Shown here: one piece after another, positions 22,849 to 28,317 of the stretch
Numbering within the stretch: the stretch's first letter is position 1
Layout of the letters: each line of letters starts with the position of its first letter
Source: an uncultured delta proteobacterium
GTDB lineage: Bacteria; Myxococcota_A; Polyangia; Haliangiales; Haliangiaceae
Length of the DNA: 64,000 nt
NCBI GenBank assembly: GCA_963743525.1
Contig: CAVUQH010000024.1
Coordinates: forward strand, 65,763-129,762
Direction: 5' to 3'
Notes under the pieces: model-generated
The model's input: the letters and a program-made list of their open reading frames with translations, nothing else
Database searches by the model: none
What the model was told of the DNA's origin: nothing
Program-made: the position numbers and the translations under genes

Positions 22849-22920
22849 GCGGGAGTAACTCAGTGGTAGAGTGCAACCTTGCCAAGGTTGACGTCGGGGG
22901 TTCGAGTCCCCTCTCCCGCT
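22849..22920 (+). tRNA. tRNA-Gly (anticodon GCC)
   Basis: GCGGGAG-TA-ACTC-AGTGGTA-GAGT-G-CAACC-TTGCCAA-GGTTG-ACGTC-GGGGG-TTCGAGT-CCCCT-CTCCCGC-T folds as a canonical cloverleaf, anticodon loop TTGCCAA. Confidence 0.95.
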
Positions 22921-23006
22921 CCGAGATGACGGCCGGTTAGACAACCGGCCGTTGTCGTTTTCGGAGACGGTCGGATCTCCTGCCATGCCGTGGCCCCTGC
23001 GGCGGC
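22875..23006 (+). repeat. Direct repeat copy 1 (3' two-thirds of tRNA-Gly plus ~85 bp downstream); attL-like
   Basis: aaccttgccaaggttgacgtcgggggttcgagtcccctctcccgctccgagatgacggccggttagacaaccggccgttgtcgttttcggagacggtcggatctcctgccatgccgtggcccctgcggcggc. Confidence 0.9.
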
Positions 23007-23361
23007 GTTGGCCCTGGTCAACTTGCCAGGGTGGCGGCCGTTGAACAGGTCGGAGCCATCGAACACTCCGCTCCAGAGGTCGCCCACGCAGTCGTCATCT
23101 GTGTTGCGGCTGGCAGGAATGCATCGCGCAGGCGCGTCCGGTCCTCGCCGACGATCAGCCGGTTGCGATCGAGTCGGGTTACGACCTCCGGCCTGGAACC
23201 TTCGTAACTGGGCCCGGGGTCCTTCGTCGTCCGGAGGTCGTCGGGTGATTCGCCTCCAATCTCCGCGCGCGCTGGCAAAGGCGAGATTGGCGAGTCGAAT
23301 TCGTCGAGACGGGAAGGGATCTTCCGCTGCTTCACCACGTACCATCAGGTGAGAGTCACCC

Positions 23362-26214: not shown

Positions 26215-28062
26215 CTACTCCGCACCTGCGAGTGTTTGCACCGTCTCGACCAGCTCGTCGAGCGTGAACGGCTTGTAGACCCGCGGCCGACCGCTGCTCT
26301 CGAGGAACTCCTGGATGGTGGGATCGAGCACGCCGCCGGTGATGAAGCCGATGCGGTGAGCCATCGCCGGAAAACGTCGCTCCACCTCTTCGTAGAAATC
26401 CATGCCGGTGCGTTCCGGCATCACGATGTCGCACAAGATCGCCTCGAACCGCTCGCCACTGCCCAGCAGAGCGAGCGCCGCTTCGACACTCTCGGCGACA
26501 GAGATCTCGAACTCGTCCGAAAGCGCCTTGGCGACCACGCTGCGGAGCAGTGGCTCGTCGTTGACGAGGAGCAAGCGCCATCGCCGTGGCACGGGCGGAG
26601 ATGGAGCGGCGGCAAGCACCGGAGAGGCGGTGTCGGAGTCGCCCGCACGCGGCAGCCGCACGCGGAAACACGCCCCGCCCCCGACCGCTTCTTCAGCGCT
26701 GATGACTCCACCGAGAGACGTCACGATCGCGTGGCAGATGGACAGGCCCAGTCCGACGCCGACACCGGCCGCCTTGGTGCTGGAGAACGGTTCGAAGAGA
26801 TGCTCGCGCATGGACGCTGGAATCCCGCAGCCTGTGTCGCGAACCGTGATTTCCACCCAGTCGCCGAGGTCCTCCACACGAACTTCCACTCGGTTTTCCT
26901 TCGCGTTGCCCTCGGGGATGGACTGCGCGGCATTCGTCAGCAGATTCACGAAGACCTGTCCGAGGCGCGCCTCGTCTCCGCGAACAAGGGGCGCATTCGC
27001 CACGTCCACATCGAGGGTGGCACGCGCCCTGATCTCCGGCCCGACGACGGACGCCGCGTATTCGAGCACCCGGCCGATCTCCACGGCTGTCGCACGCGGC
27101 GGTTCGACCCGTGAGAACCTGCGCATGTCCTTCACCACTCGGCTCACGCGGTCGAGGCCGGTCTGGATGTGGTCCAGCATCTCCAGCAGACGTGGTCGCC
27201 GCTCCTCGCCTACGTCTCCGGCGGCCAGCGCCCGCGTGACACTTTGCAGATTGAGCATCGCGAACGTGAGCGGATTGTTCACCTCGTGCGCGACGCCCGC
27301 CGCGAGCCGACCGATGGTGGCGAGCTGCTCGCGCGCCGCGAGGTCAGCCTCCAGGCGCTTCCGCTCGGAGATGTCGCGGATGGTCACGATTCGCACTGTC
27401 CGCCCCCGATGCTGGATGGTCCGTCCGCGTGCCTCCGCCGCAAACGTGGTGCCGTCCGCGCGCTTGCCCACAGCTTCGTAGGGGCGTTCGTCTCGCGTCG
27501 AGCTCGCCTGACGCACGAGCTCGATGGATTCCGGCGCAACGTAATCGAACATGTTGCTGCCTCGGAGGTCCTCGACCCGGAAGATCTTGTGAGCCGAAGC
27601 ATTGGCAAATAGAATCGTGCCGGCGTCGTGGACGATGACCGCCTCGAACGTGGCTTCCGACAATGCGCGGAACTGGAGCTCGCTTTCCCGGAGGAGCGAC
27701 ACGTTGTGGATCATCATCCAGATGCGCTCACCCTCGTCGGTGTCGAAACGCACGGTGAAGACCTCGCCCTCGAAACGCGTGCCGTCCTTGCGCACCAGCC
27801 AGAGCTGGCCTCCGAACGATCCAGTCGCCTTCCCCCGGGCGATCGCCGGAGCCAGACGCTCCGGGTCATCGATGGTGTCCGCCTGCACCAGGCCCGTCAT
27901 CTCGCCCGCGCCGTAGCCAAACAGCCGCTCCGCAGCGGCGTTGGCGTTCGTAATCACGCCCGTCGTGGTCCCGATGACGACGGCTTCCGAGGAGCGGCGG
28001 AAGATCAAGTCGAGCCAATCGAGCGGCGCCTCTCGCACCGGACCGTCCGATTTCGAACCCAC
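26215..28062 (-). CDS. Hybrid sensor histidine kinase / response regulator with PAS domains
   Basis: PAS-like VVIGTTTGVITNANAAAERLFGYGAGEMTG; HisKA GVAHEVNNPLTFAMLNL; HATPase; C-terminal receiver RLLLVNDEPLLRSVVAKAL...ILCDIVMPERTGMDFY. Its stop sits 3 nt from the kinase-remnant stop. Confidence 0.88.
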   Translation of the reverse strand: MGSKSDGPVREAPLDWLDLIFRRSSEAVVIGTTTGVITNANAAAERLFGYGAGEMTGLVQADTIDDPERLAPAIARGKATGSFGGQLWLVRKDGTRFEGEVFTVRFDTDEGERIWMMIHNVSLLRESELQFRALSEATFEAVIVHDAGTILFANASAHKIFRVEDLRGSNMFDYVAPESIELVRQASSTRDERPYEAVGKRADGTTFAAEARGRTIQHRGRTVRIVTIRDISERKRLEADLAAREQLATIGRLAAGVAHEVNNPLTFAMLNLQSVTRALAAGDVGEERRPRLLEMLDHIQTGLDRVSRVVKDMRRFSRVEPPRATAVEIGRVLEYAASVVGPEIRARATLDVDVANAPLVRGDEARLGQVFVNLLTNAAQSIPEGNAKENRVEVRVEDLGDWVEITVRDTGCGIPASMREHLFEPFSSTKAAGVGVGLGLSICHAIVTSLGGVISAEEAVGGGACFRVRLPRAGDSDTASPVLAAAPSPPVPRRWRLLLVNDEPLLRSVVAKALSDEFEISVAESVEAALALLGSGERFEAILCDIVMPERTGMDFYEEVERRFPAMAHRIGFITGGVLDPTIQEFLESSGRPRVYKPFTLDELVETVQTLAGAE

Positions 28063-28187
28063 CAGCCCACGTTAGCACCGGGGAGCGTCGCCGAGAATCG
28101 CACAGCGGAACCGTGACGACCTGACGCCCGGACCGGGCTAAGTGTTCATGTTGTTTCAGTTTCGCTAATCATCTTGGGGGCCGTCAG

Positions 28188-28317
28188 AACCTTGCCAAGG
28201 TTGACGTCGGGGGTTCGAGTCCCCTCCCGCTCCGAGATGACGGCCGGTTGGACAACCGGCCGTTGTCGTTTTCGGAGACGGTCGGATCTCCTGCCATGCC
28301 GTGGCCCCTGCGGCGGC
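28188..28317 (+). repeat. Direct repeat copy 2 (partial tRNA-Gly 3' portion 28188-28231 plus downstream); attR-like
   Basis: Identical to copy 1 except for a 2-nt deletion (cccctcccgc versus cccctctcccgc) and one a/g substitution. No 5' half of the tRNA. Confidence 0.9.

Follow-up and report, generated by a model that had tools for sequence, protein, structure and literature searches.

A tRNA-Gly gene followed by two displaced 3' fragments and two islets lacking integrase genes in an uncultured member of Haliangiaceae

The stretch analyzed here (the window; 64,000 nt, positions 65,763 to 129,762 of contig CAVUQH010000024.1, assembly GCA_963743525.1) belongs to an uncultured delta proteobacterium of the family Haliangiaceae, and encodes a tRNA-Gly(GCC) gene at 22849–22922, its single tRNA gene. 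The tRNA gene is followed in tandem by a first islet (islet 1, 23009–28187), a displaced copy of the tRNA 3' half (R1'), a second islet (islet 2, 28319–34282) and a third copy of the tRNA 3' end (R3), after which the sequence continues with a gene for a serine/threonine protein kinase (STPK) with tetratricopeptide repeats (STPK-TPR; Table 1). The reading that we favor, to which we give somewhat better than even credence, is that the locus consists of decayed tRNA islets resembling cis-mobilizable elements (CIMEs), left by two successive site-specific integrations, with the recombination genes either lost or supplied in trans. Islet 1 carries a gene for a papain-fold protein and a small lipoprotein gene, which are probably a toxin and immunity pair.

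The tRNA-Gly gene and its displaced fragments

The intact tRNA-Gly gene was recognized by ARAGORN and by Rfam (RF00005, 67.3 bits); its 3' end reads ...CTCCCGC-T-CCG, and CCA is incompletely encoded. A direct repeat of 131–134 bp (R1/R1') begins with the second base on the 5' side of the anticodon stem (tRNA position 28) and extends about 85 bp past the tRNA. R1 comprises tRNA nt 28–73, a terminator hairpin (22929–22952; fold z = -4.3) with its T-run, and then about 46 bp. R1' lies between the islets, forming the right boundary of the first and the left boundary of the second. The two copies are 98–99% identical (alignment of 22840–23030 vs. 28150–28340; 95.8% across 142 nt by self-BLAST, ragged ends counted); their differences are a single A/G substitution, located in the terminator loop, and a 2-nt (CT) deletion in the distal copy, which damages the T stem/acceptor junction of R1'. 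A 58-nt probe from the non-tRNA part of R1 has two sites in the window, both of them repeat copies, and none in 100 shuffles. The R1 tail is homologous to the tRNA terminators of relatives, and the tRNA 3' half (37 nt) has no match among viral contigs.

R3 is a second displaced fragment. Its tRNA part (34283–34312) covers the T stem to the acceptor plus CCA and reads GGGGGTTCGAGTCCC-TCGCCCGCTCCA; it starts where the T stem does, at tRNA position 49, and is identical to the intact tRNA at 26 of 28 nt, being more diverged than R1'. The window has three occurrences of the 15-mer GGGGGTTCGAGTCCC, all on the + strand, and shuffles have none. R3 has its own terminator hairpin (z = -3.3), and all three tRNA copies keep such a hairpin, followed by UUU(U)CGG. 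R3 also keeps TCCACC, as do the intact tRNAs of two related contigs, L081 (ENA ERZ25039549) and L093 (a JGI metagenome contig), vs. TCCGAG in the window tRNA and in R1'. The last three bases are CCG in the window tRNA (22920–22922), and CCA in L081 (11203–11205), L093 (2257–2259) and R3. We propose that R3 is the displaced native 3' end of the tRNA.

The locus thus holds one intact tRNA and two 3' fragments, all co-oriented. Three co-oriented copies, each with a terminator, might also be what is left of tandem tRNA-Gly genes that decayed in place, with no insertion. This is extremely unlikely: a fuzzy scan of the window found no copies of the tRNA 5' half beyond the intact gene, identity stops abruptly at stem edges and not gradually, the copies are 5–6 kb apart with whole genes between them, and relatives have a single tRNA at the locus.

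Both fragment starts (positions 28 and 49) lie at the 5' edge of a stem that flanks a crossover loop. Crossover sublocations of tRNA-targeting elements are centered on the anticodon loop or on the T loop/junction, and tandem arrays occur (PMC4383910; for sublocations also bioRxiv 10.1101/2020.11.02.365908). By the principle used in Islander, a regenerated tRNA and a displaced fragment mark the two ends of an island (PMC4383910). By our estimate, two arbitrary breakpoints would both fall at such stem edges by chance in less than 1% of cases.

The first-pass annotation of this DNA had described the intact tRNA-Gly and one distal copy of its 3' half with one substitution and one 2-nt indel, all of which ARAGORN, Rfam and the alignment confirm; it missed R3, as well as the 120-bp repeat R2/R2' described below. 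It had also held that the repeat reaches unusually far past the tRNA, a claim that fails because a 131-bp block lies inside the published range, which extends to about 221–250 bp: identity blocks measure 15–221 bp in Klebsiella tRNA gene (tDNA) islands (bioRxiv 10.1101/2020.11.02.365908), and elsewhere are reported at up to ~250 bp and can run into terminators (PMC10111431).

Table 1. Features of the tRNA-Gly locus, in window coordinates.
Feature	Position	Strand	Basis
Intact tRNA-Gly(GCC); position 28 onward is part of R1	22849..22922	+	ARAGORN, Rfam
R1, tRNA-proximal copy of identity block	22875..23008	+	Alignment, self-BLAST, fold z, terminator scan
DNA absent from L081, tRNA terminator to M13 peptidase gene	22965..47991		BLASTN vs. 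L081, junction alignment
Islet 1 left end, non-coding	23009..23487		Flat GC3 phase plot; relaxed Pfam/PHROG; tblastn
Toxin-like protein, 590 aa (ORF open from 23362, 632 aa)	23488..25260	+	Start confirmed by 100% database match
Partner gene, 198-aa predicted lipoprotein, lipobox LLGC	25274..25870	+	Translation; homologous partners in 3/3 contigs
Gap, 228 bp	25871..26098		Layout
R2, truncated copy of STPK-TPR 3' end	26099..26218	+	Repeat search, self-BLAST, alignment
Hybrid histidine kinase, PAS-PAS-HisKA-HATPase_c-REC	26215..28062	-	Pfam
Non-coding, 125 bp, relatively AT-rich	28063..28187		Layout
R1', displaced copy: tRNA nt 28-73 and 85-bp tail	28188..28318	+	Alignment, self-BLAST, 58-nt probe, fuzzy scan
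Islet 2 cargo	28358..34253	+	Pfam
STPK-AAA_16 protein	28358-32314	+	Pfam
Peptidyl-prolyl isomerase (PPIase)-like protein	about 32317-33273	+	Pfam
Unknown protein, 273 aa	33432-34253	+	Pfam
R3, third tRNA-Gly 3' fragment with own terminator	34283..34365	+	BLAST to L093 tRNA, alignment, 15-mer count, fuzzy scan, hairpin z
R2', source-type copy: 3' end of resident STPK-TPR gene (34439-37528)	37416..37535	+	Repeat search, alignment; NCBIfam kinase and TPR

Gene content of the islets

There is no integrase, excisionase or transposase among the open reading frames (ORFs) between the repeats according to Pfam and PHROG, as the first-pass annotation had stated, and this extends to the non-coding stretches. 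Integrase remnants were likewise absent from 23009–23361, 25871–26098 and nearby ORFs at relaxed thresholds (Pfam E ≤ 5; PHROG E ≤ 1), and the ORFs of 22.9–48 kb gave no match to Phage_integrase or any other recombinase.

The gene layout of islet 1 was derived from codon-phase analysis of GC content at third codon positions (GC3), together with Pfam. The window averages ~70% GC, and the first block of islet 1 (23009–25870) has 62.2%, below every window of the same size elsewhere (minimum 64.8%, mean 70.1%, sd 2.3%). This low GC is largely due to amino-acid composition, the toxin-like protein having 11.5% Lys (GC3 0.84). The histidine kinase gene has 66% GC and GC3 0.81, and core genes have GC3 of 0.89–0.94. 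The low-GC, Lys-rich character that had been assigned to the whole cargo is real but applies mainly to 23009–25870: only the toxin-like and partner genes look compositionally foreign, and the cargo of islet 1 is a mosaic.

Further evidence of mixed origin comes from R2, which corresponds to the final 37 codons of the STPK-TPR gene, its stop codon and a further 7 nt. R2 and the corresponding end of the resident gene (R2') share 94% identity over 120 bp (seven differences), and the stop codon of the histidine kinase marks the exact end of R2. The two repeat pairs are interleaved (R1-a-R2-b-R1'-c-R2'). Orthologues of the histidine kinase (67–85% amino acid identity) have a different context in every relative (loci L083–L088), and nucleotide homology to the closest, L083, is confined to 26218–28053, ceasing at the ORF ends. 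In five contigs with an orthologue, synteny is not conserved, and neither a tRNA nor a remnant of the STPK gene adjoins the histidine kinase gene. Judged from these comparisons, the hybrid histidine kinase behaves like a relocating single-gene module. We propose that islet 1 carries chromosomal DNA of this genome or of a close relative, in the form of the R2 remnant and the hybrid histidine kinase. Because the R1 block and R2 are local sequences, islet 1 would have been put together in this genome or in a sister strain.

Islet 2 has a counterpart in the related contig L001: the block 28427–34253 shows 84–85% nucleotide identity (82% amino acid identity for the STPK-AAA protein), and it coincides exactly with the interior bounded by R1' and R3. 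In L001 the block has different flanks, with no tRNA in 10 kb upstream. L001 was rejected as an empty site, since the common part is limited to 28427–34253 and no tRNA lies upstream; a 75% tRNA-like BLAST match at L001 9790–9863 is attributed to chance, having no ARAGORN or Rfam support.

Variability of the site among relatives

In L081, homology to the window (88–90% nucleotide identity over 10914–22964, with a gap at 14498–15494) extends through the tRNA and its terminator. Beyond the tRNA (L081 11245–18428) are 7.2 kb of unrelated genes, and homology to the window resumes at 47992, just ahead of the M13 peptidase gene. The L081 block encodes a BNR protein, an 824-aa eCIS_core (DUF4157) protein, a 391-aa protein and a WHD-AAA ATPase (with IetA-like PADLOC matches), and contains neither an integrase nor a distal tRNA fragment. 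At its far junction (L081 18400–18460 vs. window 47960–48020), only the first ~15–20 codons (signal peptide) of the orthologue of gene 46566–48020 remain, and the L081 state is thus a replacement or deletion. L093 is 88.5% identical from 20650 to the tRNA plus 14 bp and then diverges completely. In both relatives, homology runs 14–40 bp past the tRNA and then gives way to unrelated DNA that differs between them; the island proteins of L081 and L093 have no relatives in the window.

A metagenome scan with the family of the upstream 207-aa protein yielded 80 loci, the 60 longest of which were searched with ARAGORN. One close relative among the scanned loci (L093) keeps the tRNA at the site, and the more distant of these 60 loci lack a tRNA-Gly there; in the distant locus L167, a tRNA-Gly lies ~3.7 kb further downstream. 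The related metagenome-assembled genomes (MAGs) are labelled delta proteobacterium or Myxococcales. On this comparative evidence, the tRNA is the edge of a hypervariable region in a narrow clade.

These comparisons alter the picture given by the first-pass annotation in three respects. It had predicted an empty site in which tRNA-Gly directly precedes the STPK-AAA gene; no such arrangement was found, and in L081 and L093 unrelated DNA follows the tRNA. The STPK-AAA gene, which it took as the flank, is itself part of a second islet bounded by tRNA fragments and lies elsewhere in L001. Finally, 5.3 kb is not the full extent, as the region that varies between relatives is 22965–47991 (BLASTN vs. 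L081).

Another relative, L082, is a short-read contig with 90% identity that ends inside the 5' half of tRNA-Gly (L082 3206–3240), as would be expected if the 3' half is repeated or if the downstream DNA varies among the strains of that sample. Such a break, and source protein records that point to a MAG, might suggest that the locus is an assembly artefact in which two strain variants in a metagenome were concatenated via shared repeats. We regard this as very unlikely. The repeat copies are non-identical, the junction at 28187/28188 must exist in reads for the assembly path to have been taken, and the closest related MAGs are long-contig assemblies (0.3–2 Mb), which suggests reads that spanned 131 bp.

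Origin of the tandem islets

Under the reading that we favor, we infer a recombinase-mediated origin and the following order of events. The native tRNA would have ended in ...T-CCA-CC, with its own terminator. A first element (islet 2) would have recombined at the T-loop sublocation, pushing the native 3' end to 34283 (R3) and bringing a replacement tRNA 3' end with a terminator tail. A second element (islet 1) would then have recombined at the anticodon-loop sublocation, its identity block spanning tRNA nt 28–73 and 85 bp of the tail, and thereby yielding R1 and R1'. The recombination genes would subsequently have been lost, or were never carried, another element having moved the islets in trans or in cis; the outcome would be CIME-like units that possess only attL-like and attR-like ends.

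The locus shares several features with the tDNA islands recognized by Islander and TIGER: an intact, apparently regenerated tRNA, co-oriented displaced fragments that start at canonical crossover sublocations, an identity block that runs into the terminator, a site that varies between relatives, and cargo that is in part compositionally deviant. It departs from them in that, at 5.3 and 6.1 kb, the units are very small, relatives supplied no uninterrupted attB with matching flanks, and neither unit has an integrase, whereas Islander demands one for each tandem member; no tyrosine integrase was detected in the ORFs of 22.9–48 kb, in the non-coding stretches or in the other scanned ORFs of the window. 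The locus also resembles CIMEs, decayed remnants of integrative and conjugative elements or integrative and mobilizable elements (ICEs/IMEs) that retain attL and attR in the absence of integration and transfer genes, and for which tandem accretion is documented (PMC5704250; Pavlovic, 2004, cited there). Here too there are att-like repeats (R1/R1', resembling attL/attR), no recombination or transfer genes were found, and the units lie in tandem at a tRNA 3' end. CIMEs were, however, defined in Firmicutes beside known integrative and conjugative elements, whereas the window contains no functional partner element; among the loci fetched, there was no related integrase-bearing element with the same att site.

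Several observations weigh against two site-specific integrations. No integrase gene or pseudogene is present in either islet or in any scanned GC3-supported ORF of the window. No relative joins the tRNA to 28319 or 34313 (L081, L093), and an empty site with matching flanks was not found. In the attP reconstructed for islet 1, arm-type repeat motifs did not exceed the level in shuffled controls, and there was no sign of an excised or circular form. Islet 2 has average GC (69%) and is trimmed to within ~30–40 bp of its three genes; because it is trimmed so closely, it has no room for decayed mobility genes. Islet 1 has an identity block and an R2 segment of local chromosomal sequence, two different crossover sublocations are needed for the two events, and the source is apparently a MAG.

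Because both the R1 block and R2 are local, a purely local rearrangement could also give this layout. By this account, no recombinase was involved: a tandem duplication of ~15 kb, from tRNA position 28 through the end of the STPK-TPR kinase gene and the histidine kinase gene, was followed by replacement of most of the first copy by the toxin cassette and by loss of the second copy of the histidine kinase gene. The interleaving of the repeats is consistent with such a history, as is the similarity of the R1 tail to the terminators of relatives, and the divergence of R1/R1' (two differences in 131 nt) is not clearly different from that of R2/R2' (7 in 120 nt). Nevertheless, a minimum of three events is needed, chance (estimated at ~0.04–0.08) would have to place the duplication junction at the start of the anticodon stem, there is no second copy of the histidine kinase gene after R2', and R3, with its start at the T stem and its native CCA, is left unexplained. 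We consider a local origin unlikely.

A RecA-dependent, Campbell-type insertion, in which a circularized fragment from a sister strain entered by a single crossover in the 131-bp homology with no integrase acting at that step, seems to us similarly improbable. It accords with the near-identity of the 131-bp block, with the 94% identical copy of the resident gene end (which points to a donor that is a close relative), and with the lack of an integrase. It nonetheless requires a prior circle with its junction exactly at tRNA position 28, which moves the site-specific step to an earlier stage without doing away with it, and a non-replicating 5.3-kb circle is an inefficient substrate.

The decayed, tRNA-targeted integrative element postulated in the first-pass annotation is therefore retained in outline, given the att-like repeats, R3, the canonical sublocations, the CCA of the outermost fragment and the divergence of relatives at the tRNA; its empty site and its "unusually far" repeat are not, and the cargo is a mosaic.

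A putative toxin and immunity pair in islet 1

The N-terminal ~165 residues of the toxin-like protein (residues 1–206 of the 632-aa ORF) are a disordered region rich in Lys and Glu, and the C-terminal ~425–430 aa form a papain-fold domain that is conserved across the family. In the family alignment (632-aa ORF numbering), C379 (TMSCGPTSIQ) and H576 (GGGH) are invariant and D600 (LSDPWEG) is nearly so; the papain-like fold with Cys, His and Asp accords with a clan CA cysteine peptidase. Fold comparison figures were highest for staphopain C (11.7), followed by a CdiA-CT toxin (10.2), interpain (10.1), streptopain (9.9), C39 peptidase domains (~9.7) and a C39-like effector of the type VI secretion system (7.4). 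The protein differs from papain-like clan CA members (staphopain, streptopain, C39, and Citrobacter rodentium CdiA-CT, 8ssm) in having an extra helical region of ~170 residues ahead of the catalytic Cys, and in the lack of detectable sequence similarity: the 590-aa protein matches no family in Pfam, NCBIfam, PHROGs or PADLOC, and no PDB sequence at E ≤ 1. PADLOC run on the locus returned generic kinase and AAA matches only.

The family includes 24 close homologues, and a profile search of 1.84 billion representative proteins retrieved 535 clusters at E ≤ 1e-3. Homologues have variable N-termini; three (P0002, P0012, P0014) carry eCIS_core (PF13699), and an LQRxAGNxAV motif is present in many. 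DUF4157/eCIS_core has been reported to mark toxins associated with extracellular contractile injection systems (eCIS) (PMC8213781), and the family resembles these toxins in the fusion of homologues to eCIS_core, in the combination of a variable N-terminus with a conserved C-terminal enzymatic domain, and in the adjacent small partner gene. In L081, this tRNA site is occupied by genes that include those for another eCIS_core protein and an AAA ATPase; that eCIS_core protein has no homology to the toxin-like protein of the window. The window protein differs from eCIS-associated toxins in having no eCIS_core domain (Pfam), and none of the scanned ORFs of the window has an eCIS structural domain; a tblastn search with the N-termini of homologues found no eCIS_core remnant upstream of the toxin-like gene.

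The partner gene begins 14 nt past the stop codon of the toxin-like gene. All three homologue contexts (L089, L090, L092) have a gene for a 140–180-aa protein 4–18 nt downstream of the toxin homologue, and these partners share 28–35% identity, and two conserved Cys, with the window lipoprotein; none of the three loci adjoins a tRNA. A conserved adjacent small partner gene is a feature of toxin–immunity modules. We infer from fold and gene arrangement that the toxin-like protein and the lipoprotein are probably a toxin and its immunity protein, and the lipoprotein signal of the partner suggests that the toxin would act in the cell envelope. From its recurrence in unrelated contigs, the cassette appears to be a mobile two-gene module.

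Other repeats and reading frames in the window

Self-BLAST detected a long internal tandem-like repeat at 3365–4005 (and 2182–2293), with a period of ~100–250 nt and 77–86% identity. Shorter in-frame repeats are present near the 5' end of the STPK-TPR gene (three 42-nt units, 34486–34611) and in a Big_7-domain gene (39303–40871; four overlapping 41-nt copies with an 18-nt period, 39413–39507). The ORF 37326–38672 shows a codon-phase GC3 frame switch near 38150 (about 38100–38200), with the ORF open to 38672; the switch may reflect a frameshift, through a sequencing error or in a pseudogene, or else a pair of overlapping genes.

Significance

The locus is not an integron, as there is no intI integrase, and the repeats are tRNA fragments and not attC-like imperfect palindromes (tRNA arms aside). 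A far-reaching and very improbable possibility is that tRNA-Gly of this myxobacterial-type lineage anchors an integron-like platform, on which cassettes that lack an integrase and end in a tRNA 3' fragment plus terminator are inserted, stacked and swapped by a recombinase encoded elsewhere in the genome. If true, this would explain the consecutive units free of mobility genes, the trimmed cargo, and the presence of a different cassette in each sister genome; such cassettes would include those for the toxin and for the eCIS_core effector.

The structure itself is of a known kind, the textbook scar of tRNA-targeted integration, here in a poorly sampled, high-GC lineage rich in Ser/Thr kinases. 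Because automated island finders demand that each unit have an integrase, they would overlook this locus. Current understanding is not overturned, and the interest of the locus lies chiefly in its cargo family and in the hypervariable tRNA-Gly site, at which three related genomes each have different cargo. The islets indicate that small units of this kind can mix foreign cassettes with local chromosomal DNA, and the papain-fold family (~535 representative clusters, no Pfam model), together with its conserved partner, is a candidate toxin/immunity pair.

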